Positions 1,961-30,253 of a DNA stretch of 32,000 nt are shown here, one piece after another (positions within the stretch are counted from its first letter, which is position 1; every line of letters begins with the position of its first letter). A program made the position numbers and the translations under genes. The notes beneath the pieces were generated by a model. It did not search any database and had not been told where the DNA came from. It was given only the letters and a program-made list of their open reading frames with translations. The stretch comes from Candidatus Saganbacteria bacterium (GTDB lineage: Bacteria; Margulisbacteria; WOR-1; JAKLHX01), in the NCBI GenBank assembly GCA_026387835.1, contig JAPLKZ010000005.1:150001-182000 (forward strand), in the 5' to 3' direction.

Positions 1961-1991
1961 TATGTATCGACAGAATATTTGAAAAATTTCA
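1961..1991 (-). promoter_or_regulatory. Alternative-sigma-type promoter, copy C: TGAAAT-N16-CGATACATA, reading toward the DUF4116 genes
   Basis: The minus strand reads gTGAAATttttcaaatattctgtCGATACATAg. TGAAAT is at plus 1986-1991 and CGATACATA at plus 1961-1969. It has the same spacing as the five other copies. Confidence 0.65.
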
Positions 1992-2018
1992 CACTTTATT
2001 AAGGACCCCCAAAAACAC

Positions 2019-2049
2019 TGAAATTTCAGGAAATACCGATCGATACATA
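2019..2049 (+). promoter_or_regulatory. Alternative-sigma-type promoter, copy A: TGAAAT-N16-CGATACATA, upstream of the HIT-like gene
   Basis: Sequence acTGAAATttcaggaaataccgatCGATACATAcaag. It is followed by the RBS AAGAGGAG (2051-2058) and the ATG at 2065. The -35 part lies inside the perfect 12-bp palindrome CTGAAATTTCAG (2018-2029). Confidence 0.65.
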
Positions 2050-2064
2050 CAAGAGGAGATAAAC

Positions 2065-2991
2065 ATGTTAAAAACATCTTTGACATATAGACAAATCGGA
2101 AATAGGCTGATCGGACAAACAGTCCTGCCGCGTGCGGGATTCACAACCGTCACGGCAGAGTCGGTCAAGCGTCTCCGGGAAGAGCTTATCTCGGAGTTCA
2201 TAAAAGCCGCGGGAGTTCAGGACCTTACAAAGAACGGTTTCAGGTTTGTCGTGGATTTTCGTCCGCGCATCAGCGATGCAAAAGTGTATCTGTTCGCCGG
2301 GAAAGACACCCCCAATATAAATCCCCAGGACTGGATGATATCCAAGCCGGAAAAATGGGAACCCGCGCCGAAAGGGTCTTTTTACTTCCTTTGTGCTGAG
2401 GCTGCAGCGGAAAGGTCACCGAGGATGAAATACGGCAACAGCTTGCTTTACCCTTCCGAGGGTAGCGAGGTGTTCGGTGTAATGGACGGCGATCCGAAAT
2501 CGGATATCCATTTTCTTATGATGACCCGGAAAAACTTTTCATCCATGCTTGATCCGGGTTTTACCACGGCACACTGGAATACGTATTTTTGGGGGGCGGC
2601 GGAAATCCTGAACAGTATGAAGGCGGGCGAGATGTACCAGAGGATATCGGCAAATTTCGGTCTTGGTTTCCAGACTGCGGCAAGGGTTCACATGCATGTG
2701 CAAGCCTATCCCGGAGAGCCTACTACAGTATTTGTTCCGCCCCTCTTTCCGGAAGATATAGGGCTTGAAGTGAAACCGGGAGGGATCATAGCTGCTCCTG
2801 CAACTTTACCTGGAAACATCCGTTTATATGGCAATCTTATGAAACAGGCATTGCTCAAGTTGATAGATGACCGAAGCAAGGTCAAAGGCTCAGACAGCGG
2901 AAGTAAGGCAGAAAGATCAAGATTAGACCGGAATATCTTTGAGCTGTTAAGAGAGCTTGAAAAGATATCTGTAAAACCAGACGCTAAATAA
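2065..2991 (+). CDS. Hypothetical protein with a HIT-superfamily-like core (H-x-H-x-Q variant, GalT/nucleotide-sugar phosphorylase branch)
   Basis: 308-aa ORF with a strong RBS. Residues about 135-215 follow the HIT layout: FGVMDGDPKSDIHFLMMTRKNFSSMLD ... ISANFGLGFQTAARVHMHVQAY. HMHVQ is encoded at 2689-2703. The approximately 100-aa N-terminal extension is unrecognised. Confidence 0.6.
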   Translation: MLKTSLTYRQIGNRLIGQTVLPRAGFTTVTAESVKRLREELISEFIKAAGVQDLTKNGFRFVVDFRPRISDAKVYLFAGKDTPNINPQDWMISKPEKWEPAPKGSFYFLCAEAAAERSPRMKYGNSLLYPSEGSEVFGVMDGDPKSDIHFLMMTRKNFSSMLDPGFTTAHWNTYFWGAAEILNSMKAGEMYQRISANFGLGFQTAARVHMHVQAYPGEPTTVFVPPLFPEDIGLEVKPGGIIAAPATLPGNIRLYGNLMKQALLKLIDDRSKVKGSDSGSKAERSRLDRNIFELLRELEKISVKPDAK

Positions 2992-3031
2992 GCGTAATCA
3001 GGCAGTTAGCAAATATAATTGCAGGACTGAT

Positions 3032-3949
3032 TCAAATCGACCGTTTTACGCCTGTCAAGTACCAGTAATATCCGGCAAGACCCACAAGAAAACCAAGAAG
3101 TCTGTTCTTTTTTCGCTTTTCAAGGTCTTTCAGGTACGCGATTATCTTTTCTTTCCCTATCCTTTTTACTATGAACGATAATAGTCCCCTGAAGCCCATA
3201 GGCAGCCAGAAACACTGCGTCGAGATCTTCACGTCCAGTTTGGGGTGCTTCCTGTAATAGATCATTGCGTTCCTGCCCATATTGACCGATTTTATCTTTA
3301 CCCATTCAAGGTCTTTAAGGTCAAAATCCTTCTTGTAATGATATCCGAAAGCTTTCTTGTTGTATTTCTGCTTGACCCCGATCTTTCTTAAGCGGTATCC
3401 GAGCTCCACGTCTTCCCAGCAGAGATCGATAAAATCTTCGTCAAAAAGCCCAGCTTTAAGGAGCAGCGTGGTCTTTATAGAACAGTTCCAAGTTGTAAAA
3501 TATCCGAAAGAAAGATCGCTGTAGCCGCCGGAGTAGCCGTCGTGTTTCTTTCCCAGGTCCTCTAGGCTGGAAGTATTTATCACTCTTCCCTGGACTATAA
3601 TATCGGGATGTTTGATGTGTAAAGACATATGTTCTTCAATAAGGTTCGGATCAGCGATAACATCGTCGTTCAGAAAAAGAATATATTCTCCGAGGGCGCT
3701 TCTTATTCCAAGGTTGTTAGCGGATGCAGGACCTTTTTTGCCGGCGATCTGGCGGATGTACCTGACGGAATGTGCCTTTCCCGTAAAGCTTTCAATGGTG
3801 TCTTTTGTCCCGTCAGTCGAGCCGTCATCAACCACTATGATCTCGAACTTATCCTTCGGGTAGGTCTGTCCCGTCAGGGCTTCCAGGGTCTTTTGAAGTA
3901 TCTTTTCCCTGTTGACCGTGGGGATAACGACCGAGATATCTATTGCCAT
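3032..3949 (-). CDS. Family 2 glycosyltransferase (GT-A)
   Basis: VVIPTVNREKILQKTLEALTGQTYPKDKFEIIVVDDGSTDGT, and the DxD-type segment ILFLNDDV. Confidence 0.9.
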   Translation of the reverse strand: MAIDISVVIPTVNREKILQKTLEALTGQTYPKDKFEIIVVDDGSTDGTKDTIESFTGKAHSVRYIRQIAGKKGPASANNLGIRSALGEYILFLNDDVIADPNLIEEHMSLHIKHPDIIVQGRVINTSSLEDLGKKHDGYSGGYSDLSFGYFTTWNCSIKTTLLLKAGLFDEDFIDLCWEDVELGYRLRKIGVKQKYNKKAFGYHYKKDFDLKDLEWVKIKSVNMGRNAMIYYRKHPKLDVKISTQCFWLPMGFRGLLSFIVKRIGKEKIIAYLKDLEKRKKNRLLGFLVGLAGYYWYLTGVKRSI

Positions 3950-3958
3950 GGCAAAACA

Positions 3959-3967
3959 ATTATAACA
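3959..3967 (-). promoter_or_regulatory. Extended -10 box TGtTATAAT, 9 nt before the ATG at 3949
   Basis: The minus strand reads cgcgTGTTATAATtgttttgccATG. There is no Shine-Dalgarno sequence between the box and the start. Confidence 0.55.
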
Positions 3968-3981
3968 CGCGGCTGTTTTAC

Positions 3982-3990
3982 TGCTAAAAT
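3982..3990 (+). promoter_or_regulatory. Extended -10 box TGcTAAAAT, 11 nt before the ATG at 4002
   Basis: Sequence acTGCTAAAATatagttaaaccATG. There is no Shine-Dalgarno sequence. Confidence 0.5.
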
Positions 3991-4001
3991 ATAGTTAAAC
4001 C

Positions 4002-4727: not shown

Positions 4728-5469
4728 TATATTCAGGAATGCTTTTTATCAGAGCGTCTATAATGCCCGCCTTTGCCTTGCGCTGCCTGAACCTTTTATT
4801 GAACACATAAAGTCTTGTGATGATCATCGCCTTTACCCTGATCTTTCCGGTGTTCATATTCCTGTCATGCATGCAGTAATCCGTCAGGGTCTCGTTCAGA
4901 TGGGCGATCTTTAATTTGTCTTTGAACCTTAACCACAGATCCCAGTCCTCTCCGCCGAAACGGATGATCTTATGGTCATCCCACATCCCTGTCTTTTCAA
5001 GAGCCTCTTTCCGGTGCATCATTGTGGATGGCATGGGCACGAAATAAAGGTCTTTTTCGGGCGGTTTTTTCGGGTTTGAAAAATCGGTAATACTCCGGAA
5101 TTTTCCGAACGACATGAATCTCGCATTGCTGTAAACGACATCAACGCAGCTGTTATTGTCAAGAAAATTTGCCAGTGTCTTGACATGGTCCTTGTGAAAA
5201 ATATCGTCGTGGTCGCAATAGGCGATATATCTTCCCTTTGAGGTCTTTATGCCGAGATTCCTGGCACTTGCCTGTCCGCCGTTTTGCTTTTTCAGATAGA
5301 CTATCCTGGGGTCTTTATAATCCAGGATAAAATTTTCGGTGTCATCTGTCGACCCGTCATTAATAATGATCAATTCAAAGTCCCTGTCACTTTGAGACAA
5401 TATCGCATCTATGGAAGGGCGGATATCTTTGCCGCGGTTATATGCGGCCATTATGATCGAAGTTCTCAT
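4711..5469 (-). CDS. Family 2 glycosyltransferase (GT-A)
   Basis: SIIMAAYNRGKDIRPSIDAILSQSDRDFELIIINDGSTDDT, and YCDHDDIF. Confidence 0.88.
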   Translation of the reverse strand: MRTSIIMAAYNRGKDIRPSIDAILSQSDRDFELIIINDGSTDDTENFILDYKDPRIVYLKKQNGGQASARNLGIKTSKGRYIAYCDHDDIFHKDHVKTLANFLDNNSCVDVVYSNARFMSFGKFRSITDFSNPKKPPEKDLYFVPMPSTMMHRKEALEKTGMWDDHKIIRFGGEDWDLWLRFKDKLKIAHLNETLTDYCMHDRNMNTGKIRVKAMIITRLYVFNKRFRQRKAKAGIIDALIKSIPEYIRVFG

Positions 5470-5478
5470 TGTTTTAGC

Positions 5479-10807: not shown

Positions 10808-12525
10808 GTGTCCCTGAACTGCAGATCATGCAATCTCTTGTAAAACCCGTCCTTTTCGATGAGCTTATGGTGCGTGCCTTCTTCGATGATCCTGCCGTCC
10901 TTCAGGACGATTATCCTGTCGGCGTCCTGGACCGTTGACAGCCTGTGGGCGATTATGAACGATGTCCTTCCTTTCATCAGTATCCTGAGCGATTCCTGGA
11001 TGAGCTTCTCTGATTCACTGTCCAGAGATGAGGTCGCTTCGTCAAGTATCAATATCCCGGGATCGCGCAGGACCGTTCTTGCTATAGCTATGCGCTGCCT
11101 TTCACCGCCGGAAAGGGTCATCCCTCTTTCTCCGACGACAGTGTCGTATTTATCCGGAAGTTCCATGATAAAACCGTGCGCGTTGGCGGTCTTTGCGGCT
11201 TCCCTGATCTGTTCATCCGTTGCCAGGATATTGCCGTACTTTATGTTCTCTTTTATTGTCCCGCTGAAGAGAAGCGTTTCCTGCGGCACGATCCCGATCT
11301 GCTTTCTTAAGCTCTGAAGTTTTACGTTCTTAATATCATGACCGTCTACAAGAACGGTCCCTTCAGTCGGATCGTAGAACCTCGGGATCAGGTTGATGAT
11401 GCTTGTCTTGCCGGAGCCGGAAGGCCCGACTATCGCAAGTTTCTCCCCGCTCTTTACTTTCAGATTTATATTGCTGAGCACCTCCTCATCTTTTTCATAC
11501 GCGAAAGAGATATTTTTGAACTCCACTTCACCTGACAGGCGCGCCATCTCGATCGCGCCCGGCACTTCCTTAATAGACGGCGTTATGTTGATAACCTCGA
11601 AAACTCTTTCGGCCGAGGCAAGCGTCCTCTGTATCGTCGTGTTTATTCTGGAAATATTTATGACAGGATCGATCAAAAGCACGGCTCCCGTGAAGAACGC
11701 GATCAGGTCGGCAGGGGAGAGCCTTCCGCTGACGACTTCGAGACAGCCGTACCAGATGACCAGGACGACCGCCAGTATCTGCAAAAAGCCGACAAGCGGC
11801 CTCTGCGTCGCGTCGACCTGAGCTTCTTTCATGAACCAGTCGAAACTGTGCTCTGTCACTGTCTTGAAACGTTCAACTTCATGTTTTTCCATGCCGAAGG
11901 ATTTTACGACCCTGGCGCCGACAATTGTTTCCTGAAGGATGGACGCGATATCAGCTATCTTTTTCTGGACATTACGTCCGATCTCTCTCATCTGCTCCCC
12001 GAACTTTGAGATGGTGAAGATAAAAACGGGAGTGGTCAGAAGGGCCATCAGGGTCAGTCTCCAGTTGAGATAAAAAAGATACCCCAAAACGCCGAACAAA
12101 GTAAGGACCTGGGGAAATATTTCGGCGGCGATCGTCACGATAGCGATCTGTATGGTCGCTATGTCATTGATGATGCGGCTCATCACTTCGCCGGTCTTCC
12201 ACTTAGAATAGAAACTGAGCGGCAGGTCCTGGATATGGGTAAATACCTCGACCCTTAGGTCTGTGACCACCCTCTGGCTAACGAACTGCGCGAAATAGAT
12301 CTGTCCGTACTGGAATATCCCTTTTACAAAGAACACCAGCACCGTGGCGCCGATGAGCGCGTTAAGGAAATAAAAGTTCTTTTCCGCGACGGCTTTTGAG
12401 ATCTGGCTGACCAAAGGGATGATGATGATATTGGACAGGGAGAACACGAACATGCATATGACCGCCAAAGCAAGCTGTCCGGTGTAGGGCTTGATATATT
12501 TAAGAAGGCGGGAAAACAATCTCAT
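10804..12525 (-). CDS. msbA: ABC exporter, fused permease/ATPase, MsbA-like (lipid/LPS-precursor flippase type)
   Basis: Six-TM N-terminal half, Walker A GPSGSGKTS, signature LSGGERQRIAIAR, Walker B ILILDEATS. It is flanked by LpxB-like genes. Confidence 0.85.
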   Translation of the reverse strand: MRLFSRLLKYIKPYTGQLALAVICMFVFSLSNIIIIPLVSQISKAVAEKNFYFLNALIGATVLVFFVKGIFQYGQIYFAQFVSQRVVTDLRVEVFTHIQDLPLSFYSKWKTGEVMSRIINDIATIQIAIVTIAAEIFPQVLTLFGVLGYLFYLNWRLTLMALLTTPVFIFTISKFGEQMREIGRNVQKKIADIASILQETIVGARVVKSFGMEKHEVERFKTVTEHSFDWFMKEAQVDATQRPLVGFLQILAVVLVIWYGCLEVVSGRLSPADLIAFFTGAVLLIDPVINISRINTTIQRTLASAERVFEVINITPSIKEVPGAIEMARLSGEVEFKNISFAYEKDEEVLSNINLKVKSGEKLAIVGPSGSGKTSIINLIPRFYDPTEGTVLVDGHDIKNVKLQSLRKQIGIVPQETLLFSGTIKENIKYGNILATDEQIREAAKTANAHGFIMELPDKYDTVVGERGMTLSGGERQRIAIARTVLRDPGILILDEATSSLDSESEKLIQESLRILMKGRTSFIIAHRLSTVQDADRIIVLKDGRIIEEGTHHKLIEKDGFYKRLHDLQFRDT

Positions 12526-13802: not shown

Positions 13803-14846
13803 TCAGTAACCGAGGTGTTTGACTATTTCTTCGATCTTTGACGGGACTTCGATAACTTTTGTTCCGGACCTGACGGCGGTATCCGGATCTTTCAGCCCGT
13901 GCCCGGTCAGGACGCAGACGACTGTCGAGCCTTTCGGGATCTCGCCCCCGTATTTCAGGAGCCCGGCGATAGAAGCGGCGGAGGCAGGCTCGCAGAAAAC
14001 TCCCTCATTTGAGGCGACATATTTATACGCGCTGATTATTTCGTCATCGGTAACAGCCCGGATCGATCCGTTAGATTCTTCTGCTGCCGCGACAGCACTT
14101 TTCCAGCTCGCGGGATTCCCGATCCTTATCGCGGTCGCGATCGTCTCAGGCTTTTCGATCGGATGGCCCTTGACTATCGGAGCTGACCCTTCCGCCTGAA
14201 AGCCGAGCATCTTTGGAAGTTTTGCGGACTTCTTATTGTCATAATACTGCCTGAAACCTTTCCAGTACGCTGTGATGTTTCCCGCGTTCCCGACAGGGAT
14301 GCAAAGATGATCAGGAGCATCTCCCATTAGATCCACTATTTCGAACGCCGCGGTCTTTTGGCCTTCGATCCTGAAAGGATTTATCGAATTGACGAGCTCG
14401 ATGGGATATTTTTCGCAGAGCTCTTTGATGATCTCCAGTGCCTTGTCGAAATTCCCGTCTATCGCGAATACTTTGGCGCCGTGCATTATCGCCTGAGCGA
14501 GTTTTCCGAGGGCTATCTTGCCTCCGGGTATCACGACCACGCAATCCATTCCCGCTCTTGCCGAATAGGCGGCTGCTGACGCTGAAGTGTTCCCCGTAGA
14601 AGCGCAGGCGACTGCCTTGAAACCTTTTTCTTTTGCCTTGCTGATAGCCATCGTCATCCCGCGGTCCTTGAAAGATCCCGTTGGATTAGCGCCTTCATAT
14701 TTAAGGAATACTTTAAGCCCCAGTTTCTTGCTGAGGTTCTCTGCGGGCAGCAGGGGAGTGTTGCCTTCAAAAAATGTGATGACCGGAGTTTTGCCGGTCA
14801 CCGGCAGATATTGCCTGTAACGGTCGATGAGGCCTTTGTATTTCAT
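13803..14846 (-). CDS. thrC: Threonine synthase
   Basis: PLP-lysine motif [18 protein letters not shown], and [11 protein letters not shown] place the start at Met19 of the ORF ([13 protein letters not shown] at 14846). Confidence 0.92.
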
Positions 14847-14852
14847 GAAAAA

Positions 14853-14861
14853 ATAATAGCA
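14853..14861 (-). promoter_or_regulatory. Extended -10 box TGcTATTAT, 6 nt before the thrC ATG
   Basis: The minus strand reads TGCTATTATtttttcATG. There is no Shine-Dalgarno sequence. Confidence 0.5.
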
Positions 14862-14862
14862 T

Positions 14863-15794
14863 TTACGGGGTAGCTTGGCAAGGAATGACGGACTTTTCAA
14901 AGATTTTCAGGTCCGGACAGCTGCTTTCAAGTTCTATCTGTTTGGGGGTTATGAAGAAAGATCCGACGCCCTTATTTCCGCTGAGGTTGAGAAAGAAATA
15001 TTTATCATCAACATTGAATACCCGTACAAGGGGATCATGGCCCATCACTATCCTTTCGACGCCCATCCTTTTAAGGTCGCCGGGGTCATAACTGAAACTG
15101 CCCCCGGGTTCTATGTTCCGGCTATAAAGAAATCCTTCTTTGCCGAGCATCCGCCAGAAGATATTTGCGCAGCCGGTGGTATCCGAGGCAAGTGCAGTTC
15201 TGAGCTCGGATTCCAGTTCTTTGAGTACCTGGATGCCTGATGCGGTCCCGTTCCTGACCTTCTCGGACGCGAGCAGATATTTGAGGCCGGAATGCATATA
15301 AAGCGTACCGAGATCGTCGATATAATACAGGCGCATATTATCGGCCATCCATTTTGCGGTCTCGATCAACTTCCTGTTGCTTAAAATGTTGTTCAAAACA
15401 GTTTGGAAAAGACTTTTGCACAGAGCCGGGCGATTTCTTGTCCATGGCCTGAGGATATAATCCCCTTCTGACACTTCAGAGAACAATGCCAAAAAAATAT
15501 CGGCCCTTATCACGTCCGCGCGTTTTGACAGGGAAAATTCATCGGCCAGGCTTGTCCCGCCGTTAGTGAGCCAGTTAAGCGCCCATTCCATATTACCCCT
15601 CATCGCCAGAGTGAACATGATCTGTCTATCAGGTCTCCCAAAGGAACGGTTCGTGCCGCTCTTAATGAAAAATATACGGCCCTGTCACACCAATGGTCTA
15701 AGCCGTGCGCGTCGCCGAGAGCGGCAGTCCCGATGCGGCGCAATATAACAGCAGGTGCCTGCTGTCTTACTATTTTATGTTGGATAGGATCCAT
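14863..15794 (-). pseudogene. PPP-family (lambda-phosphatase/PrpA/ApaH-like) metallophosphoesterase, split across two frames with an internal deletion
   Basis: ORF 15600..15797 carries motif I (LGDAHG) and motif II (GDLIDR), then stops. ORF 14863..15618, in a different frame, continues with MRGNMEWALNWLTNGG (GNHE with His replaced by Met) and VMGHDP. The DR-to-RGN spacer is about 7 aa, against about 18 aa in lambda PP and PrpA. The ATG at 15794 is preceded by the RBS GGGAGGG. Confidence 0.65.
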
Positions 15795-15811
15795 CAAGCC
15801 CTCCCTATAAC

Positions 15812-15842
15812 TATTTATCGATAAAATTTGGGAGATATTTCA
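15812..15842 (-). promoter_or_regulatory. Alternative-sigma-type promoter, copy F: TGAAAT-N16-CGATAAATA, upstream of the split phosphatase gene
   Basis: The minus strand reads aTGAAATatctcccaaattttatCGATAAATAgttatagGGAGGGcttgATG. Confidence 0.65.
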
Positions 15843-15881
15843 TTGATTTTACTGAATATACGGTTATCTAAAAAAATTAAA

Positions 15882-15890
15882 TGGTATAAT
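15882..15890 (+). promoter_or_regulatory. Extended -10 box TGgTATAAT, 9 nt before the purN ATG
   Basis: Sequence aaaTGGTATAATttcaatgtaATG. There is no Shine-Dalgarno sequence. Confidence 0.6.
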
Positions 15891-15899
15891 TTCAATGTA

Positions 15900-16508
15900 A
15901 TGGGAAAGATAAACATTGTCGTGCTCATTTCCGGCAGGGGTTCGAACCTACAGGCAATAATAAATGGCATCGAGACCGGCAAAGTAGATGCCAGGATCTC
16001 ATGCGTCATATCAAATAAACCCGATGCTTTCGGTCTGGAAAGGGCTAAACAGCACAATATACCCTCTGCGGTCGTGAATAGTAAGGAATTCAAAGATAAG
16101 GGGGGTTACGAAAAAGAACTTTTAAGGGTCATAGATGATTACAAGCCAGACCTTATCTGTCTTGCGGGGTATATGCGGATAGTAGGCGCGGACATTATTA
16201 AAAAGTATAAAGGAAAGATAATGAACATCCATCCGGCCCTTCTGCCTTCGTTCCCGGGACTTCACGGCCAGAAACAGGCGATCGACTACGGGGCCAAGGT
16301 CTCAGGCTGCAGTGTCCACTTCGTCGATGAGGGATGCGATACCGGCCCGATAATACTCCAGGCCGCTGTTCCCGTGACGGATGATGATACCGAAGAGACT
16401 CTTTCGGAGCGTATCTTAGCCGAAGAGCACAAAGCGTATCCGAAAGCGATACAGTTGTTCGCAAAGAGAAAATTAAAGATAGAAGGGAGAAAAGTCAGGA
16501 TACAATGA
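15900..16508 (+). CDS. purN: Phosphoribosylglycinamide formyltransferase
   Basis: MGKINIVVLISGRGSNLQAII, and NIHPALLPSFPG. I place the start at Met25 of the ORF. Its stop overlaps the purH start (ATGA). Confidence 0.92.
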   Translation: MGKINIVVLISGRGSNLQAIINGIETGKVDARISCVISNKPDAFGLERAKQHNIPSAVVNSKEFKDKGGYEKELLRVIDDYKPDLICLAGYMRIVGADIIKKYKGKIMNIHPALLPSFPGLHGQKQAIDYGAKVSGCSVHFVDEGCDTGPIILQAAVPVTDDDTEETLSERILAEEHKAYPKAIQLFAKRKLKIEGRKVRIQ

Positions 16509-18150: not shown

Positions 18151-19338
18151 ATGAAAAAACTATCTGTTTTGTTGATGATCCTGATGATCGTTTCCTGTTC
18201 CTATGCCGCCGAATTTTCGGTGACAAGCGATACTTTCGGACAATCATTATTAAAAACAAAAATATCCAACAATGCCAGTTTTGGATTTCTGAACTCCAAC
18301 GGCACGGGAGCCCCAGTTTTTTCATGGAATCCGGATTTTCATAATTTCGGTGTGGGTGTAGGATTATCAGTGAACATACCTATAACACCGCAGGGCCAGC
18401 CTATAGGCGTCGACAATGTAGTTGTAAGATATGCGGAGTACTCGGGATCAAAGTGGGGGCTCAGATACGGGATACTGAACAATGTGACCCTTGCGAACGG
18501 CCTGCTGGTCAGTAATTATTCAACTTCCACAAAAGGCGGAATAATCCAGACTGACGGGCAGACAGGTGTGCGCGCATATTACAACTGGGATTATGCCGCG
18601 GTAGAATGTTTCGGCACATGGACCGGTGTTTACGGGGTGAGATTGACGGAAAATGTCCTGCCATTCCTGACTTTGGGGCAGTATATGGCGGGTGACACGG
18701 ACGGGATCAAACAGGTAAAGCCAGACGGAACGACAAAACAGTTCCCGTCGCAGTCGGGCTGGGGTCTTGATGCATCAGTGCCGCTGTTTCCCGGAGCCAG
18801 CCTGTTTGCGGAGTACGCGAAGCTCAACAATTACGGCGGGGGTTTTACCGGAGGACTTAATGCCGGATATAGTTTTCTTATTGGGAAGATCGGCTTGAAA
18901 GCAGAACGAAGGATATTAGACTATAATTTTGTCCCGGGTTATTACAACGACGAATATGAAGTAAATCCGATCGACATTGTCTCGTACGAGGCGACTTCCA
19001 CTAATAAGAACGGTTATGCATTGTCGGTCTACGGGGATATCCTTTCAAGAGCGAAGTTCATCGCGATCCTCGAACAATATAATGACAGCAACGCTTCGCT
19101 AAGAGCCGAAGCGCTTGCAGATCTGACCGACGCATATTTTTTGGGCGTTTCTTATGTCCAGCCGAATTTCAGGGATTTCAGGACCCTGGATGCCAGCGAC
19201 GGGGCAATAATCACTACGAAGCTCGGATATAAGATCAATCCTTTTACACAGGTCATTGCCAACTATAAAAAAGCGTATGATCCGGTCCAGGGCAAAGTCG
19301 TCGAGACGCAGTGGTATGAGGTGAGCCTGAGTTTTTAG
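18151..19338 (+). CDS. Outer-membrane beta-barrel protein (porin-like), secreted
   Basis: Signal peptide MKKLSVLLMILMIVSCSYA/AE, alternating beta-strand-like composition, and a C-terminal YEVSLSF ending in Phe (the OMP signature). The RBS is AAAAGGAG. Confidence 0.7.
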   Translation: MKKLSVLLMILMIVSCSYAAEFSVTSDTFGQSLLKTKISNNASFGFLNSNGTGAPVFSWNPDFHNFGVGVGLSVNIPITPQGQPIGVDNVVVRYAEYSGSKWGLRYGILNNVTLANGLLVSNYSTSTKGGIIQTDGQTGVRAYYNWDYAAVECFGTWTGVYGVRLTENVLPFLTLGQYMAGDTDGIKQVKPDGTTKQFPSQSGWGLDASVPLFPGASLFAEYAKLNNYGGGFTGGLNAGYSFLIGKIGLKAERRILDYNFVPGYYNDEYEVNPIDIVSYEATSTNKNGYALSVYGDILSRAKFIAILEQYNDSNASLRAEALADLTDAYFLGVSYVQPNFRDFRTLDASDGAIITTKLGYKINPFTQVIANYKKAYDPVQGKVVETQWYEVSLSF

Positions 19339-19340
19339 GG

Positions 19341-19922: not shown

Positions 19923-19932
19923 GGCTGATGAT

Positions 19933-19938
19933 ATTATA
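19933..19938 (-). promoter_or_regulatory. -10 box TATAAT, 10 nt before the tsaC ATG
   Basis: The minus strand reads tataTATAATatcatcagccATG. There is no Shine-Dalgarno sequence. Confidence 0.5.
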
Positions 19939-19940
19939 TA

Positions 19941-19949
19941 TGGTATAAT
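19941..19949 (+). promoter_or_regulatory. Extended -10 box TGgTATAAT, upstream of the TPR gene
   Basis: Sequence taTGGTATAATttggaattaaaagttaaaaATG. There are 19 nt between the box and the ATG at 19969. Confidence 0.55.
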
Positions 19950-19968
19950 TTGGAATTAAAAGTTAAAA

Positions 19969-21526: not shown

Positions 21527-21531
21527 AAAAT

Positions 21532-22503
21532 ATGGAAGAAGTCCAGTCAATACAGCAATTAGAAGAGATCCTTGAGCGAAAAGGCCCTTCTTTCGACGTT
21601 ATCATAATCGGCGGCGGGCCGGCCGGGCTCACTGCCGCGATATATTCCTCGCGTTCAGGCCTTAAGACGCTTTTAATAGAAAAAGCCCTCCTGGGCGGCC
21701 AGGCATCTCTTTGTCCGGCCATCGAAAATTATCCGGGTTTTCCTTCGGGGATATCCGGAGCGGAGCTCTCGTCAAGGCTCGAGGACCAGGCCAGGAAATT
21801 CGGGACTGAGATAATCTGGGGCGACGTGAACGGCATTTCGCTGGAGGGCGACCAAAAAAAAGTCGGTCTGAACGATAAGATATTTTCGGCAAAGGCCCTG
21901 ATATTGGCATCGGGCGCAGAACCAAAAAAACTGAAGATCCCCGGTGAGGACGAGTTCAGGGGAAGGGGAGTATCATATTGCGCGACCTGCGACGGCGCTT
22001 TTTACAGGGACAAAGAACTTGTCGTGATAGGGGGAGGCAATTCGGCCGTGTCGGAAGCGATATTCCTGACAAAATTCGCGTCAAAGGTGGGGATCATCCA
22101 CAGGAGAAGCGTATTAAGGGCCGATAAGGTGCTTGGGGACCGCGCTTCTTTTGAGCCGAGGATCTATTTTGTGTGGGACAGCGTGCCCGAAAAGATCAAC
22201 GGAAAAGATACGGTCACTTCTATAGAAATAAAGAACGTGATAACGGGAAAAACCTCGAGGATAGAGACCGACGGAGTGTTCATCTATATCGGAGAACATC
22301 CCAATTCATCTCTTGTCAGGGGCCTTGTTGATATTTCGGAAGACGGATCCGTAATTGTCGATGACAGGATGATGACGTCATGCAAAGGCATATTTGCCGC
22401 CGGGGATGTCTGCCGGAAACATCTGAGGCAGATAGCGACAGCGGTCGGCGACGGTGCACTCGCGGCCGACTCGGCTCGAAAATATATCGAAAACATGATA
22501 TAA
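21532..22503 (+). CDS. trxB: Thioredoxin-disulfide reductase
   Basis: FAD site DVIIIGGGPAGLTAAIY, redox motif CATCDG, and NADPH site VIGGGNSA. Confidence 0.93.
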   Translation: MEEVQSIQQLEEILERKGPSFDVIIIGGGPAGLTAAIYSSRSGLKTLLIEKALLGGQASLCPAIENYPGFPSGISGAELSSRLEDQARKFGTEIIWGDVNGISLEGDQKKVGLNDKIFSAKALILASGAEPKKLKIPGEDEFRGRGVSYCATCDGAFYRDKELVVIGGGNSAVSEAIFLTKFASKVGIIHRRSVLRADKVLGDRASFEPRIYFVWDSVPEKINGKDTVTSIEIKNVITGKTSRIETDGVFIYIGEHPNSSLVRGLVDISEDGSVIVDDRMMTSCKGIFAAGDVCRKHLRQIATAVGDGALAADSARKYIENMI

Positions 22504-22525
22504 TTTTTTCTAGGAGGCTAAATAA

Positions 22526-23350
22526 TTGGCAGTAATAACGATGAGACAATTGCTTGAAGCGGGCGTCCACTTCGGGCACCAGCGAAGGTTCTGGAACCCG
22601 AAGATGAAGACATACATTTTTTCGTCAAGGAACGATATCCATGTGATCGATCTCCATAAATCCATACCGCTGATAGAAAAAGCATACCAGTTCATCAAGA
22701 AGACCGTCGAGGATAAAGGGACCGTGCTTTTCGTCGGCACAAAAAAACAGGCCCAGGAAGCGATCGAGACGGAAGCAAAAAGGTGCGGCATGTTCTTCGT
22801 CAGCCAGAGATGGCTGGGCGGGACGCTCACTAATTTCAAGACGCTCAGAAAAAATATCGCGCGCCTTAAAGACATCGAAAAGATGGAAACGACCGGCATG
22901 TTCGAAAAACTCCCGAAAAAAGAGGTCGCAAAGCTCCAGAAGGAAAAAGCAAAACTGGACAGGATGCTGGGGGGAATAAGGGACATGTCATCCCTGCCGT
23001 CAGTGGTCTTCATCGTTGACACAAAAAAAGAGGTCATCGCCGTGAAGGAGGCCAGGAAACTGGGCATCCCGATAGTAGGGATAGTCGATACCGACAGCGA
23101 CCCGGAAGAAGTGGACCACGCCATACCGGCCAACGACGACGCAATAAGATCGGTAAAACTCCTCACATCGATAATCGCGGATGCGGTGCTTGACGGAAGG
23201 CAGCTAACGGAACCCGGGCAGGAGTTCGGCATATCGATAGAGGACACGCCCGAAGAGCTCGCTGCGGCCATAGAGATCGAAAAGGAAGAACAGCTGCAGG
23301 ACGTCAGCATCGAAAGCTTCATCAAAATACCCGACAAAGAAACCGAATAG
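22526..23350 (+). CDS. rpsB: 30S ribosomal protein S2
   Basis: [27 protein letters not shown]. It has a TTG start, with AGGAGG 7 nt upstream. Confidence 0.95.
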
Positions 23351-23364
23351 AAAGGCCTTTGGAA

Positions 23365-23964: not shown

Positions 23965-26677
23965 TACGCCCGTAATCTACCTCATAGATGGGAACTCTCT
24001 GGTCTACAGGGCTTTCTACGCCCTTCCCGACACGATGAAGACCGCTTCAGGCATCACAACAAACGCAATTTACGGTTTTACTAACATGCTTTTAAGGCTT
24101 CTCGATGACAAGCCGGATTACATCGCGATAGCTTTTGACAGGCCGGAACCCACTTTCAGGCACAAAGAATACTCTGAGTACAAAGCCCAGAGGCAGAAAG
24201 CTCCCGATACGTTAAGGCAGCAGTTCCCTTACATCAAGGAGTTGATCTCGATGTTTTCGATCCCGGTATTCGAGATGGCCGGTTTTGAAGCTGACGACAT
24301 CGTGGCCACGATCGCAAAAAAGGCCGAGAAAGACGGGATGAAAGCGGTGATAGTCACGGGAGACAAAGACACTTTTCAGCTCATCAATGACAGTATAAAT
24401 GTTCTTACCGCGGTAAAAGGCATAACCGAGACCATGCTTTACGACAGCACTAAGGTCAAAGAAAGGTTCGGGATAGAACCCAAATTCCTTCTTGATTATA
24501 AATCCCTTGCCGGTGACCCGTCGGATAACATACCCGGAATCCCGGGGGTGGGGGAAAAGACGGCGGTATCCCTGATATCAAAATTCGGTGACCTTGAGTC
24601 GATAATAAAGAACGCCGATACTCTTGAAGGTAAACTTAAAGACAAGATAAAAAACAATGTCGGGATCGCCCGTCTTTCAAGAAGGCTGGCCGAACTGGTG
24701 ACGGACATGCCGCTGGACATAGATTTCAAGAAACTTGAAAGGAAAGAAATAGACTGGCCTTCAGTGTTTCCGCTCCTTGAAAAGTTCGAGTTCAAAAGCC
24801 TTCTGAAAAAATACGGCAAGGACCAGACAATCGGTTTGTTCGCACAGGAAAGCAGGGAAAAAGTCAGGCAGGCCGACGAGAATACGGATTATAAGTTGAT
24901 AGAGAACGGCAAAGACCTCGATTCTCTTATCGGAGAGATCAGATCAGCAGGCGCATTTGCTTTTGATACGGAGACTACATCACTTGATACAATGACTGCC
25001 AAGCTTATAGGCATTTCAATATCCTGCAAATTATGCAAGGCTTCTTTTATCCCTGAAGGTATTATTTCAAAGTTTGGAAATGCAGAAAAACTGAAGGATA
25101 TATTTGCGGACTCAGAAATAAAAAAATACGGCCATAATCTTAAATATGACATAGAGATCCTTAACGGTCACGGCATAGAAGTCCACGGTATAGATTTTGA
25201 CACTATGGTAGCCGCATATATTCTGGACCCGACTGCAGGGAAATTCGGCTTAAAGTTCCTCGGAGCAAAGTATTTCGGAAAGATCATGACCAGCTATGAA
25301 GAGCTCATGCTTGCTGACAATGCAAAGGATATCAAGAACACGGATATTGAAGATCTCAAAAATTATGCCTGTGCCGATGCGGATATCACATTCCGGCTCC
25401 AGGAAGTGCTGCGTAAAGAACTGACGGAAAAAGGGCTTCTCAGCATATTTTCAAATATCGAAGTGCCCCTGATCGAGGTCCTTGTGAAGATGGAGGAGGA
25501 CGGCGTCTCGATCGACGAGGCAAAGCTTTCTTTCCTGTCAAAGGACGTTTCCAAAAGGATCGAACGCCTTGAGATAGAGATATATGCCATCTGCGGCGAG
25601 AAGTTCAATATCAACTCTCCAAAACAGCTTGCCGAGATACTTTTTAATAAGCTGAAGCTCCCGAAAGGCAGAAAGACAAAGACGGGACAGTCAACTGACG
25701 CGTCAGTCCTTGAATCCCTGGCCGGCAATTTCGAGATTGCGCAAAAACTTCTCGAGTACAGGCAGCTCGCAAAGCTGCAGAGCACTTATATCGACGCGCT
25801 TCCCCAGATGGTCAACAAGAGGACGGGAAGGATACACACGTCATTTAACCAGATCATCACGGCGACAGGCCGCCTTTCAAGCAGCGATCCAAACCTGCAG
25901 AACATACCGATAAGATCGGACCTCGGCAAGATGATAAGGGATGCTTTTGTTCCTGCAAATGACGGGGACATGATCCTGTCCGCCGATTATTCTCAGATAG
26001 AGCTACGCATACTCGCGCACCTCAGTAAAGATCCGGAACTGATAAAGGATTTTATCGAAGACAAGGATATTCACTCCGCTACCGCGGCTGACATATTTGG
26101 TGTCAAATTCGAAGAAGTAACAAAGGAGATGAGGACCTTCTCGAAAACGATAAACTTCGGCATTGTTTACGGTATGAGTTCCTACGGTCTCGCGAAAACA
26201 CTCAACATCAAACCCAGAGAGGCTGAAGAATACATCTCTAAATATTTCAACAAATATAAAGGTGTAAAGGCGTTCATGGACAACACGATTCTTTTTGCAA
26301 GAAAGAACGGCTATGTCGAGACCCTTCTCGGCAGGAGAAGGTATTTAAGGAATATCGACAGCTACAACCAGAACGAGAGGCAGGCTGAAGAGAGGATAGC
26401 TGTCAACACACCGGTGCAGGGAACAGCCGCCGATATAATCAAAGCGGCTATGATAAAGATCTATAATAGACTGAATGTAAGGGCGGGTTTAAAACCCGCC
26501 CCTCTCAGATCAAAAATGATACTTCAGATCCACGATGAGCTTGTGTTCGAATGCCCGAAGGAAGAAGTCGAACAAGTTAAGACGCTTGTCAGGGATCTCA
26601 TGTCAACGGCCGTTCCTCTTGATGTCCCCGTCAAAGTCGATATCGGTGTTGGGAAAAGCTGGGGCCAGGCGAAGTAA
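23948..26677 (+). CDS. polA: DNA polymerase I (5'-nuclease, 3'-5' exonuclease and polymerase domains)
   Basis: [15 protein letters not shown]. Exo motifs [17 protein letters not shown] and YACADAD. Pol motif A DYSQIELR and motif [10 protein letters not shown]. The TTG start at 23948 overlaps the tsf end, and the start is uncertain. Confidence 0.93.
26654..26677 (+). repeat. Direct repeat copy 1 (the authentic polA 3' end, AAAAGCTGGGGCCAGGCGAAGTAA)
   Basis: A 24-bp exact match to 28652-28675. Confidence 0.9.
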
Positions 26678-26753
26678 AAATACCATTGTCCTTCGTACTC
26701 AGATTCTTAATAAATACTTTTAATTAGCGCCTTACCGAAATAATGTGGACAGG

Positions 26754-26784
26754 TGAAATTCTTGGCGGAAAAACACGATGATTA
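26754..26784 (+). promoter_or_regulatory. Alternative-sigma-type promoter, copy D: TGAAAT-N16-CGATGATTA, upstream of the 615-aa gene
   Basis: Sequence ggTGAAATtcttggcggaaaaacaCGATGATTAtattgataacatATG. The -10 tail is more divergent than in the other copies. Confidence 0.55.
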
Positions 26785-26796
26785 TATTGATAACAT

Positions 26797-28644
26797 ATGA
26801 ATATTCAGGGATTTACAATGAGAAATATTTCCGCTTCCATGAGGAGCGGGTGTATCCCGGCGAGGGCACTGACTGAATTTGACAGGCAAAGATTTCGTAT
26901 CGTTAAAGGTCTTCAGGATCCGTACGGCCGGTTTGTTTATGCCCCGGAATCTGCGAGCATTTCCATGACACGAAAGTGCAATTCAACCTTTTGCCCTCAA
27001 TGTGCCCCTGATTCTACAGCAGGTTCAAACCTTTCTCTAAGCAGAGAACAAGTCAAAAAAATTATGGGCGATCTCGCAGAGATTCCCATCAATATGCTAT
27101 ATATCGAGGGTGGCGAACCGACACTTGAACTTGATAATACATTACTGGCGTCCCGTCTTGGAGCGCATATTTTAAACATGTACGGATTTAGTCTCGAGAG
27201 CAATCTCTCGTGGGCATCTACAGAGGATAGCACAACTGAAATGCTGTCAAGGCTGGCAACCCAGGGGATCGAGCGAAATAGAAAAATCTTTGTGACAGGA
27301 GGGAACCTCGACTCTTTTCATGATTTTGTCCCATTGCAAAATCACATCAATCTTGTGCGTCAATTCTGGCGATATTTCCCAAGCGGGGAAATGGTATTCT
27401 CCCGTTTGGAAGACCCTAACGACGACTCGGTAACAAGATTTATCCAACTTCTTAAGGAACAAGGCTGGCGTTGCGATTATAAGGAGATCCCGACAGACCC
27501 AGAATTATATCAAACTCCGGCAGTTGAAGAGATAAATATTGATATGGGGTCCCATGCGGGAGGTAAAAGAAAGATCTGCATACAGCATAAATTCCCTGTC
27601 CTTGTAGGCAGGGGAAAACAGCTGAGGCAAACCCCTTACTTGGACTGGCTAAACGCAGCAAGAGGAAAGCAGGTCGACATGCGAGAAGATAAAAGCACTA
27701 TATTTCCTGAAGCTGTCGAAAGCGAAGGGCAAATCGTGAGCATAGGATGGGACGGTCTCGTTTATCTTAATCCTATGTTCATGCATACGCAGACGTATCC
27801 GCTGGGCTCGATCGACGAGGAAGACCTGTATTCGATAATCAAGAGGGCAAATAAAGATCCGCTAGTGAGACGGCTGGTGGCAAGAGGATTCGGAAGTATT
27901 TTTAGGGTCGCTGCAAAGATATTTCCGCAGCTTGCGCATTTTGACCCAAGGCTGGGCATAAATGAAATCTGCATAGATACTCTTCAAAATCCTGAGCAGA
28001 ATCTTGCAATACTTGAAGGGATATTGAGAGAAGAAGGAGAGTTAACTACTGCAGCGGCAAGGTTGAAATCCGCCCCGGATAGTATTGACATAAAAGCTGC
28101 ATTACAGGACTATGCGAGCCGGGACTGGACAGGAATCGAGAATACTTTTGTATGGTGCGCAACAGATAAGGTCGCGGAGCTTACGGTAGAAAAGCAGATT
28201 GAGACGATCAGCGCAACGGACCTCAAAGGATTTGAGACGCAGATCCTGTTCTCTCTTGTAATGAGAGCAGAAGAAAAAAGGAAAAAAGAGCTGCTGTGCA
28301 TGGCGGTGGCGGATAAAGCACTTTTATTAAAACTTTTTGGCCCGCCGATGTATTCGGATTATATTGACGGGCAAAAAGAGTTTGCCTGTAAAGTATTTGC
28401 GGGCATAATTGCGGAAAAGGGGAGTATCCCTCTTCCTGCAGACGAAAAAGAAGAAAAACCGTTTTTAGACGTGCTTGTGGCATTATTAAACATCGGCGCG
28501 ATAGATATTTTCTTTAAAAAATATGAAGTATTGCCTGGCACTGATCAAGCAAAGATGAATAAAATCATTTTAAAAGACGCCGATCTTTTCTCTGTAATTG
28601 TTGACAGATTAGGGGACGCATGGATGAAGAAAGGCCCGAAATGA
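26797..28644 (+). CDS. Radical-SAM-like protein with non-canonical CX4CX2C and a long helical C-terminal extension
   Basis: SMTRKCNSTFCPQCA (Cys61/66/69, nt 26977-27003) is followed by the SAM-binding-like LYIEGGEPTL, then SLESNLSW, VTGGNLDSFHD, and a Cys-less SPASM-like stretch VSIGWDGLVYLNPMF...PLGSIDEEDLYSII. The last 230 aa or so are unrecognised. Confidence 0.5.
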   Translation: MNIQGFTMRNISASMRSGCIPARALTEFDRQRFRIVKGLQDPYGRFVYAPESASISMTRKCNSTFCPQCAPDSTAGSNLSLSREQVKKIMGDLAEIPINMLYIEGGEPTLELDNTLLASRLGAHILNMYGFSLESNLSWASTEDSTTEMLSRLATQGIERNRKIFVTGGNLDSFHDFVPLQNHINLVRQFWRYFPSGEMVFSRLEDPNDDSVTRFIQLLKEQGWRCDYKEIPTDPELYQTPAVEEINIDMGSHAGGKRKICIQHKFPVLVGRGKQLRQTPYLDWLNAARGKQVDMREDKSTIFPEAVESEGQIVSIGWDGLVYLNPMFMHTQTYPLGSIDEEDLYSIIKRANKDPLVRRLVARGFGSIFRVAAKIFPQLAHFDPRLGINEICIDTLQNPEQNLAILEGILREEGELTTAAARLKSAPDSIDIKAALQDYASRDWTGIENTFVWCATDKVAELTVEKQIETISATDLKGFETQILFSLVMRAEEKRKKELLCMAVADKALLLKLFGPPMYSDYIDGQKEFACKVFAGIIAEKGSIPLPADEKEEKPFLDVLVALLNIGAIDIFFKKYEVLPGTDQAKMNKIILKDADLFSVIVDRLGDAWMKKGPK

Positions 28645-28651
28645 TATCTGT

Positions 28652-28675
28652 AAAAGCTGGGGCCAGGCGAAGTAA
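28652..28675 (+). repeat. Direct repeat copy 2 (displaced remnant of the polA 3' end)
   Basis: Identical over 24 bp to 26654-26677. With upstream GATATCtGT it reads D-I-C-K-S-W-G-Q-A-K-stop in the polA frame, against the authentic [12 protein letters not shown]-stop. Confidence 0.9.
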
Positions 28676-28702
28676 TCGCCCCATTATTCCGCTCAAAATG
28701 GA

Positions 28703-28733
28703 TGAAATAATTTAAATAAATAATCGATATATT
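28703..28733 (+). promoter_or_regulatory. Alternative-sigma-type promoter, copy E: TGAAAT-N16-CGATATATT; the ATG lies 6 nt after CGATAT
   Basis: Sequence gaTGAAATaatttaaataaataatCGATATATTtatATG. There is no room for a leader or a Shine-Dalgarno sequence. Confidence 0.6.
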
Positions 28734-28736
28734 TAT

Positions 28737-30185
28737 ATGCAATTCAAATGGATACATGAAGGGCCGATATATCAGGCGATGGTTAAAGACCATGGAGGTT
28801 TTACCGCTATAAAAAGAAGATTGCCTTATCTTGCGGAAAGGAATATAAAGACTATTTGGTTATGCGGCGTCCAAGAGAACCATAACGGGGTCTCGCCCTT
28901 CGCCTTAACGGACCCGCTGGCAGTCGAAAAAAAATATGGTACCGAGGACGATCTAAGGGATCTGATCAATACCGGGCATGAAAAGCACGGGTTCAGGTTC
29001 ATCGGTGATTCCATATTGAACCACGTTTCAAGAAGCAGTGCATTACTAAGGAGCCATTCTGACTGGTTCTTAAGATACCCGAGCGGTTGGATAAGATATG
29101 GCACTGACCTTAACAATGAAAGCGTAGATAAGCCTTTTGTGCCGGGAAAAGATTGTTGGAGGTTCGAGGATACGGCGCAATTTGATTTCCTGGCCCCGGG
29201 ATTAAAACAGTATTTGATAGACTCCGGATATTTCATGCTTAACCTAGGCTTTGACGGGCTGAGGATGGATGCGCCAATGGCGCTCCTAAAAAATAGAATG
29301 AAATATAATTGGTACCGGGGCAGAGAACATGAAGTGGATAAAGTGTTCCGGGATGAACTCCTCAGAGAGTTCATATATCTTATGAGGGAAAGAAGAAATG
29401 ATGCCTGTTTTGTGGCGGAATCTTTTCAGATGCATAAAGAGATGATCTCTTGCGGGATCGATGTGGCCTATGATCCGGGATGCGTATATAAGGCATACGA
29501 TGTTTTTAAACGTCTTGCAGATGTGGAGACATTCGATAGATATCTCAGCGACATCTGTTCGAATGGAGGTGAAAGTTCGTTCTGCATGGCCCATTTCAAG
29601 GACGGACATGATATAAGGGATACCCGCTGCAATGACGAAGGAATGAAAAAACCAAGGAACCTTGACCCTGCCGAGCTCAAGGTGGTGGCGACGCTTATTG
29701 CGACCATGCCCGGGGTGCCGATGTTATTCAACGGGGAGCTTGAGGCGGTCAGAGGATACGGCTATGACAGGGAAGGCACTTCTTTTATAGATTTCGGCAA
29801 CATCGACGGTGACCTTGCCTCTTTCAATTATGCCCTTTCCAAATTGTGGCGCATGCCGCTGTTCAGACAAGGCGGAACCGATTATCTTCCTACAAGGGAC
29901 GGATGGACATCCGGCGGTATAAGGGCATTTGCGAGGCAGTTCAACGGCGAAAAGGCTGTCGTCGCGGTAAATATGCATTCAGATTACGCGTGGACAGCTT
30001 ACAGGTCATTTGGTGTCGATCCTCTTCTCTGGGGTCTTGGGGACGGCCGTAAGATCATGGTGCGTGACATGATGACCGGCCAGCTGTTCCATGAGACGTC
30101 AGCCGGTGATCTGAGGACGAACGGACTTAAAGTCGGGCTTTGGCCCAAGGGTTCTCAGGTCCTGCAGCTGATACCGAAAGATTGA
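28737..30185 (+). CDS. Alpha-amylase-family (GH13) catalytic-domain protein, cytoplasmic
   Basis: All four GH13 regions are present: GDSILNHVS (I), GFDGLRMDAPM (II, nucleophile Asp), FVAESF (III, Glu), and AHFKDGHD (IV). There is no signal peptide. Confidence 0.8.
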   Translation: MQFKWIHEGPIYQAMVKDHGGFTAIKRRLPYLAERNIKTIWLCGVQENHNGVSPFALTDPLAVEKKYGTEDDLRDLINTGHEKHGFRFIGDSILNHVSRSSALLRSHSDWFLRYPSGWIRYGTDLNNESVDKPFVPGKDCWRFEDTAQFDFLAPGLKQYLIDSGYFMLNLGFDGLRMDAPMALLKNRMKYNWYRGREHEVDKVFRDELLREFIYLMRERRNDACFVAESFQMHKEMISCGIDVAYDPGCVYKAYDVFKRLADVETFDRYLSDICSNGGESSFCMAHFKDGHDIRDTRCNDEGMKKPRNLDPAELKVVATLIATMPGVPMLFNGELEAVRGYGYDREGTSFIDFGNIDGDLASFNYALSKLWRMPLFRQGGTDYLPTRDGWTSGGIRAFARQFNGEKAVVAVNMHSDYAWTAYRSFGVDPLLWGLGDGRKIMVRDMMTGQLFHETSAGDLRTNGLKVGLWPKGSQVLQLIPKD

Positions 30186-30222
30186 TCCTTCCGGCGCATT
30201 TCTTAGAGCACCTAAAAAATAC

Positions 30223-30253
30223 TGAAATTTCAGATATTTCCCGACGATAGATA
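30223..30253 (+). promoter_or_regulatory. Alternative-sigma-type promoter, copy B: TGAAAT-N16-CGATAGATA, upstream of the 256-aa orphan
   Basis: Sequence acTGAAATttcagatatttcccgaCGATAGATAtatg. It has the same CTGAAATTTCAG palindrome (30222-30233) as copy A. Confidence 0.65.

Follow-up and report, generated by a model that had tools for sequence, protein, structure and literature searches.

We analysed a stretch of 32,000 nucleotides (nt) of contig JAPLKZ010000005.1 from a Candidatus Saganbacteria bacterium, hereafter the window, in which six copies of the bipartite motif TGAAAT-N16-CGAT stand in front of genes most of which are specific to this lineage. An earlier note on this DNA, made from the letters alone, had placed the copies at 2019+, 30223+, 1991-, 26754+, 28703+ and 15842- and had read them as promoters of a regulon under an alternative sigma factor. 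Searching both strands, we found all six as exact matches at these positions, and the genes that the note had placed behind each of them hold. In the following they are referred to as putative promoters A to F, the bases following CGAT are given in brackets, and the distance to the start codon is counted from the T of CGAT.

Promoter C (1966-1991, minus strand; TGAAAT-N16-CGAT(ACATA)) lies 26 nt before the ATG at 1939 of the first of two tandem genes for DUF4116-repeat proteins, which together occupy positions 1-1939 of the minus strand (755-1939, plus a second gene that runs from about 703 off the left end). Since no motif was found between the two genes, both probably form one transcription unit starting from promoter C. 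They are built of tandem units of 75 nt, or 25 amino acids (aa), of which the complete gene has nine or more, and the Logan assemblies of the same organism break at these repeats. On the other strand, promoter A (2019-2044, plus; CGAT(ACATA)) lies 20 nt before the ATG at 2065 of a HIT-like gene of 308 aa (NTZ10_01635, 2065-2991, plus), whose product matches PF01230 weakly and whose homologues carry PF01230.

Promoter F (15817-15842, minus; CGAT(AAATA)) is located about 20 nt before the start of a 65-aa open reading frame (ORF), with the Shine-Dalgarno sequence AGGGAGGG in between. This ORF (15600-15797), which carries GDAHG, and a 251-aa ORF (14863-15618) make up a frameshift-split phosphoesterase gene (14863-15797, minus). 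The two overlap at 15600-15618 in different frames, and the gene could be a pseudogene, or the split could result from a sequencing error or from programmed frameshifting. We considered promoter F as the driver of the long operon of thrC, lipopolysaccharide and glycosyltransferase genes and rejected it, as thrC has its own promoter (TTGCCA-N17-TATTAT with TG, 14881-14853); for the same reason, promoter F probably serves the split phosphoesterase alone.

The remaining three sites are all on the plus strand. Promoter D (26754-26779; CGAT(GATTA)) lies 17 nt before the ATG at 26797, and 38 nt before an alternative ATG at 26818, of a radical-SAM-like gene of 615 aa (26797-28644) whose product has the variant motif Cx4Cx2C. 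The 24-nt sequence AAAAGCTGGGGCCAGGCGAAGTAA occurs twice as a perfect direct repeat, at 26654-26677, where it makes up the 3' end of polA, stop codon included, and at 28652-28675, shortly after the radical-SAM-like gene; the 1998 bp between the repeats, containing promoter D and its gene, look like an inserted cassette with target duplication. Promoter E (28703-28728; CGAT(ATATT)) precedes a gene of the GH13 (alpha-amylase) family (28737-30185) by only 8 nt from its ATG at 28737, so that the GH13 mRNA is probably leaderless or nearly so. Promoter B (30223-30248; CGAT(AGATA)) lies 56 nt before the ATG at 30305 of a 256-aa orphan gene (30305-31075) without a Pfam match. Promoters A and B resemble each other far past the ten motif bases, being alike at 70% identity over 61 nt (1995-2055 and 30199-30259), and the 308-aa HIT-like protein and the 256-aa orphan encoded downstream of them showed no mutual similarity. 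The HIT-like, radical-SAM-like and GH13 proteins each match, at 100% identity, a protein of a metagenome-assembled genome of a Candidatus Saganbacteria bacterium (locus tags NTZ10_01635 and NTZ10_01755). Searches of Pfam, NCBIfam and PDB with the orphans, the split phosphoesterase and the radical-SAM-like protein gave nothing usable.

The frequency of the motif is far above chance, as the earlier note had held. In 100 dinucleotide-preserving shuffles of the window the mean number of exact sites was 0.18 (the note had estimated about 0.06), and none of the 100 reached six. Counting both strands, the window contains 33 TGAAAT sites and 359 CGAT sites, the latter corresponding to a per-position frequency of 0.0056, so that finding CGAT by chance at a single fixed offset from six or more of the TGAAAT sites has a probability of about 3e-8. 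Only six of the 33 TGAAAT sites have CGAT at N16, in agreement with the claim that the others lack it. When the spacing was varied from N12 to N21, six matches were obtained at N16 and either none or one at each other spacing, and the single site with one mismatch is antisense inside a TPR gene. All six exact sites fall within the intergenic 3.2% of the window (P about 1e-9) and all six face a start codon; the gap, claimed to be 6-60 nt from the CGATAn hexamer, measured 8-56 nt from the T of CGAT. CGATA is present in five of the six, the exception being site D with CGATG. The N16 spacers and flanks of the sites other than A and B bear no relation to each other, and a scan of the whole window with Rfam matched no family, so that the sites do not belong to any known RNA element. 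A 9-kb rightward extension of the window, taken from Logan contigs of the same organism, contained no additional site. The claim that the motif covers all the uncharacterised genes was overstated, as a 395-aa gene at 18151-19338, without a Pfam match, has no motif.

The housekeeping genes of the window have promoters of a different kind, and the assignment of TGnTATAAT boxes to them by the earlier note proved right, with the boxes taking the form TGnTAnnAT. The extended -10 box TGgTATAAT stands before purN and before the TPR-lptCA-trxB unit, TGtTATAAT and TGcTAAAAT before two divergent GT2 genes, and TGcTAAAAT before a pyrR-like gene, while rpsB is preceded by TCGAAA-N17-TATAAT with TG. Neither TTGACA-N17-TATAAT nor TGnTATAAT was found at the six motif sites. 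Promoters of the two classes occur in roughly equal numbers in the window.

The motif was then followed into relatives of this organism, whose loci are numbered with the prefix L. It stands upstream of orthologues that share only 31-46% aa identity and lie in differing gene contexts, in six of six cases for the GH13 gene, four of four for the HIT-like gene and two of two for the radical-SAM-like gene. Few proteins belong to this GH13 subfamily, eight at E<=1e-20, and in the relatives (38-46% identity) the gene has a different context, beside purQ, purS and purB. Among its six orthologues in the lineage, four have the exact motif (among them L006 698+, L007 4459+ and L069 5138+, 12-45 nt before the start), one has TGAAAT-N16-TGAT (L004 9933+), and one is reached via a phosphoesterase gene upstream in the same operon, which carries the exact motif (L070 1578+). 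No motif was found before a GH13 gene with 35% identity on a contig labelled Omnitrophota; this was the only further contig obtained in a genome-contig search with the GH13 alignment, and the search with the GH13 protein alone gave no match. The HIT-like orthologues in Margulisiibacteriota (34-38% identity) have the exact motif in L019 (525+), TGAT in place of CGAT in L016 (9942+) and N15 spacing in L017. The sole non-self homologue found for the radical-SAM-like gene (L008, 31% identity) is preceded by TGAAAT-N16-CGAA at 2943+.

Across the 101 kb of relatives' loci that were fetched through the motif-linked genes, a scan of spacings from 10 to 22 gave 15 exact matches at N16 and 0-2 at each other spacing. 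Further sites stand before neighbouring genes, mostly without a Pfam match: three more consecutive genes of L008 lie behind sites at 4815, 5928 and 6870, L007 has a divergent pair of sites, and three sites each occur in the 2.2-kb L019 and in L017. Many of the relatives' targets are orphans, and those with a recognised product include phosphoesterases, a HAD hydrolase, a HEAT-repeat protein and one protein each with GGDEF and HD/HD_5. The 39 distinct sites give a consensus of an A-rich stretch, TGAAATtt and then CGATAa, the base after CGAT being A in 33 of 39. The ten specified bases are conserved across the relatives whereas the spacer sequence is not, which indicates a functional -35/-10 pair rather than a repeated element.

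A candidate for the factor that reads the motif was found on one of these loci. The earlier note had stated that no sigma gene lies in the window and had proposed a search for a FliA-like sigma gene or one of the extracytoplasmic function (ECF) type. No sigma domain was detected in any window protein scanned, and the part of the proposal that succeeded concerns the relatives, where a FliA-like gene exists. L016, the Candidatus Margulisiibacteriota contig with a HIT-like orthologue, carries the flagellar export cluster fliM-fliN-fliP-fliQ-fliR-flhB-flhA, followed by ORFs of 89 and 45 aa and by a gene whose 196-aa product has the domains Sigma70_r2 and Sigma70_r4, and an exact TGAAAT-N16-CGAT is located between flhA and the 89-aa ORF. 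The gene order of a second contig with a HIT-like orthologue is the same.

Scanning metagenome contigs of the Joint Genome Institute with the 196-aa sigma protein yielded 49 loci (61-83% identity, 376 kb). In these, N16 gave 19 exact matches and each other spacing 0-4. Seventeen of the 19 lie on the same strand 470-690 nt upstream of the sigma gene, right after the flhA stop codon and before the first small ORF, and four further loci have a motif with one -10 mismatch (CGAA, CGAG or AGAT) at the same position. The motif precedes the sigma operon in 21 of 41 loci. Of the remaining loci, some have no promoter, the small ORF following flhA immediately, and others have one of the sigma-70 type: L034 carries TGtTATAAT, and the WOR-1-type loci L040-L043 carry TTTACA-N17-TATAAT. 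In 13 loci the sigma operon is preceded by the FlhA C-terminus VPQVKVQSIGMIS, and the order flhB-flhA-sigma recurs in L054 and L042. By exact look-up, the sigma-bearing organisms are Candidatus Margulisiibacteriota and candidate division WOR-1 bacterium RIFOXYA12_FULL_52_29, which the NCBI taxonomy places inside Candidatus Saganbacteria.

The interval from flhA to the sigma gene contains two small ORFs that are conserved (L016 11954-12389, L054 9475-9992 and equivalents in L021-L063). The first, of 80-135 aa, has the motif ...IVTNPELRRQAL... and is absent in the WOR-1-type loci; the second, of 48-74 aa, has the motif ...P(V/I)LR..W.F.... Searches of Pfam, NCBIfam and PDB with these small ORFs matched no family. 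The second ORF always ends no more than a few bases from the start codon of the sigma gene, pointing to translational coupling between the two, and its product is a candidate anti-sigma factor or partner of the sigma factor.

The sigma proteins are 192-210 aa long, compared to the 240-255 aa of factors with regions 2, 3 and 4 complete. Their region 2 aligns to FliA residues 25-101 and their region 4 to residues 191-248, and since only about 32 residues lie between the two, instead of about 89 in FliA, region 3 is largely missing. A profile built from 15 family members and compared to PDB retrieved chains of FliA, WhiG, SigF and RpoS, with all the top matches being FliA or WhiG; no ECF sigma was found at E<=1e-3. 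The region 4.2 helix reads GLSESQVSRI in the sigma protein and GVSESRVSQL in FliA. Sigma70_ECF of Pfam scored E=0.066, and TIGR02937, the generic sigma-70/ECF superfamily model, is the only model that the protein passes. By these comparisons, the protein is best described as FliA-like and not as a certified member of the FliA/WhiG family.

We propose that the six sites would be the promoters of one alternative-sigma regulon, each gene having its own promoter. TGAAAT(tt) would act as the -35 element and CGATA(a) as the -10 element, at a fixed spacing of 16 nt, and transcription would start about 7-10 nt after CGATA, giving short leaders and the near-leaderless GH13 mRNA. The factor most likely to read the motif is a FliA-like sigma of small size (about 195 aa), consisting of regions 2 and 4 with region 3 largely missing. 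In Margulisiibacteriota and Saganbacteria its gene is located behind flhA, separated from it by one or two small ORFs, and the present genome presumably encodes it as well. The last small ORF, which overlaps the sigma start codon, might supply a partner or anti-sigma factor. The same motif before the sigma operon in about half of the lineage would provide positive autoregulation, and read-through from the flhA operon into the sigma gene would couple the regulon to the expression of flagellar genes. In the window the regulon would comprise the DUF4116, HIT-like, split phosphoesterase, radical-SAM-like, GH13 and orphan genes, non-flagellar and mostly lineage-specific, with the housekeeping genes left to sigma-70 through extended -10 promoters. 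We put the probability that the motif is a genuine alternative-sigma promoter class at about 0.9, and the probability that it is read by the flhA-linked, FliA-derived small sigma factor at about 0.68. It is most likely a variant of the sigma-28 class that controls mainly non-flagellar, lineage-specific genes.

The comparison with known systems points in the same direction. The sigma-28 (FliA) class 3 promoters of Escherichia coli and Salmonella have the form TAAAGTTT-N11-GCCGATAA, or TAAA-N15-GCCGATAA, and those of Bacillus subtilis SigD the form TAAA-N15-GCCGATAT. The present consensus, GAAATTTT-N11-nnCGATAA, has the geometry, the CGATAA core, the T-rich tail after the -35 element and the high sequence stringency of the sigma-28 promoters; all sites have the arrangement GAAA-N17-CGAT, and only this spacing is enriched. 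The -10 element and spacing also agree with those of SigD (CGATAT/A). It differs in the first base of the -35 element, which is T in TAAA and an invariant G, preceded by an invariant T, in TGAAAT, and in the GC extension before CGATAA, which is not conserved here (two bases, about 0.3-0.5 bit); as a possible lead, the absence of this extension may be connected with that of region 3.

The genetic arrangement is likewise familiar. The known design of fliA and sigD combines positive autoregulation with read-through from a flagellar operon, sigD being located at the end of the fla/che operon; as with fliA, the candidate sigma gene is in a flagellar cluster with its own promoter of the same class, and as with sigD it follows flhA, has a putative extra sigma-dependent promoter and would serve a regulon that includes non-flagellar genes. 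Unlike in B. subtilis, the gap between flhA and the sigma gene contains no flhF, flhG or che genes, having two small lineage-specific ORFs instead, and the protein has about 195 aa compared to the 254 aa of SigD. The targets seen here are non-flagellar, in contrast to those of classical sigma-28, and the candidate sigma differs from it by the loss of most of region 3 and by its score below the family cut-off. Sigma-28 of Chlamydia and WhiG of Streptomyces are FliA-family factors that serve non-flagellar genes through a TAAA...CGATA-type promoter; the present targets resemble theirs in being non-flagellar, and WhiG is among the best PDB matches of the candidate sigma. In these organisms, however, flagella are lacking or the sigma factor is developmental, whereas the candidate sigma still sits in a flagellar cluster. 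Enzymes of cyclic di-GMP metabolism occur in known sigma-28 regulons, and the GGDEF and HD/HD_5 proteins among the relatives' targets echo this.

The earlier note had left sigma-28 and ECF side by side, and the balance now leans to sigma-28, with the reservation that the protein is below the FliA/WhiG cut-off and has no region 3. An ECF-type (group 4) promoter of the SigW/SigX kind, read by the flhA-linked protein acting as an ECF sigma or by an ECF sigma encoded elsewhere, appears unlikely to us. SigW-type promoters have the form TGAAAC-N16-CGTA, and those of the SigW/SigX kind also TGTAAC-N17-CGAC; the identical N16 spacing, the TGAAA start of the -35 element, the CG-led -10 element within a similar TGAAAx...CGxx outline, and the CGAC and CGAA variants at some sites are what would be expected of such a promoter. 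At about 195 aa with two domains, the candidate protein is of ECF-like size, and it also passes TIGR02937, the generic model; its operon, with a small ORF that is probably coupled translationally to the sigma gene, may be autoregulated, as are those of SigW-type factors. Yet the ECF hallmarks AAC at -35 and CGT at -10 are absent, AAT and CGA being fixed by construction in the 39 exact sites, and the one-mismatch variants do not restore either of them. Moreover, the protein is FliA-like and not ECF-like by the PDB profile and by its Sigma70_ECF score, no membrane anti-sigma gene is adjacent to the sigma gene, and the latter occupies the canonical fliA position after flhA.

That some other factor is involved, either an activator with a TGAAAT half-site near a weak sigma-70 -10 box or an unusual housekeeping consensus, seems improbable. 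The bases after CGA (TAnAT/A) do look loosely like a -10 hexamer, and half of the approximately 12 promoter-bearing gaps of the window have the motif; nevertheless, the distance from TGAAAT to TAnATA would be 19 nt, the invariant CG would be left unexplained, and the motif is non-palindromic with a rigid N16 spacing, as is typical of sigma -35/-10 pairs. Because canonical extended -10 and TTTACA-N17-TATAAT promoters coexist with it in the same window and lineage, we rejected the motif as the housekeeping promoter of this lineage. A third explanation, that the copies are what is left of a repeat or a mobile element, in the form of duplicated promoter cassettes without common regulation, is very improbable. 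It would account for the 61-nt resemblance of promoters A and B and for the position of promoter D with the radical-SAM-like unit between direct repeats of the polA 3' end, but not for the unrelated spacers and flanks of the other sites; the lack of an Rfam match speaks against it as well, and it is largely refuted by the conservation pattern, in which the motif and not the spacer is retained before orthologues of 31-46% identity and before operons of sigma proteins 61-83% identical.

The interpretation as a promoter class read by the flhA-linked sigma factor retains our preference, and the earlier proposal of an alternative-sigma class with sigma-28/ECF geometry and a regulator outside the window is supported by the conservation, by the coexisting sigma-70 promoters and by the motif before the relatives' FliA-like sigma operon. 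Several observations weigh against it. The best specific model for the protein, TIGR02479 (FliA_WhiG) of NCBIfam, scored 74.4 bits against a cut-off of 189.6, and the sigma gene was not found in the window. In L042, from the Saganbacteria genome WOR-1 RIFOXYA12_FULL_52_29, the sigma operon stands behind a sigma-70-type promoter in 20 kb without the motif. The relatives' loci were reached via motif-linked genes, so that the density of sites in them is biased upward, and the sigma-centred loci have a low density of sites outside the sigma promoter. The presence of a motif before the sigma gene would also fit a cascade, with the gene transcribed by a different sigma factor. Finally, a tblastn search of all fetched loci with a B. 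subtilis flagellin (an approximate query) gave no flagellin match, and no other late flagellar gene is present in them.

Going one step further, a FliA-derived sigma-28 of reduced size, without region 3, could have become a broad regulator of accessory genes in Margulisiibacteriota and Saganbacteria, working without the GC extension, with targets that travel as promoter-gene cassettes such as the radical-SAM unit inserted at the polA 3' end with its 24-nt duplication; we regard this extension as possible but rather doubtful.

The gene switch is real, but it is of a kind with precedent, namely a sigma-28-like promoter set. In the literature on Saganbacteria or Margulisbacteria with sigma, FliA or motility we found no description of the motif, the promoter or the regulon; the one relevant point in it was that Margulisbacteria have FlgV homologues. 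Neither Saganbacteria nor Margulisiibacteriota, sister lineages of Cyanobacteria, have been cultivated; for both, a precise and highly stringent promoter signature can be used across metagenome-assembled genomes to define the regulon, and the candidate regulator lends itself to synthesis and to tests with E. coli core polymerase. A natural sigma-28-like factor with only regions 2 and 4 would bear on the relations between group 3 and ECF-type sigma factors. For the orphan genes, being marked as co-regulated, possibly with motility, represents a first functional handle.

Some further features of the window and of the relatives' loci were observed. Between purH and the 395-aa signal-peptide gene, the segment 18050-18150 contains a G+C-rich hairpin, cccctctccacgaagtggagagggg, that is a likely terminator; between it and the 395-aa gene there is no recognisable promoter of either class. 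The extended -10 boxes of the window (3950-4001, 14846-14881, 15880-15905, 19923-19968, 22476-22526 and 31595-31640) are located 6-22 nt before the ATG, and the housekeeping genes with such near-ATG boxes often have no Shine-Dalgarno sequence, which suggests that many mRNAs of this organism are leaderless or nearly so. In L017, an exact motif at 11606 (+) has no called gene downstream on its strand, and the next ORF of at least 50 aa begins 80 nt further on and overlaps a gene called in the opposite direction; this motif may serve a small RNA or an unannotated small gene. The lineage-specific phosphoesterase of L070 and L007 has about 295 aa and the N-terminus MxKIAYVTDLHL. It shares one motif-driven operon with the GH13 gene in L070 (1578-3981), and in L007 (4459-9086) the two genes are separate units, each with its own motif, an arrangement that suggests a functional link between phosphoesterase and GH13.

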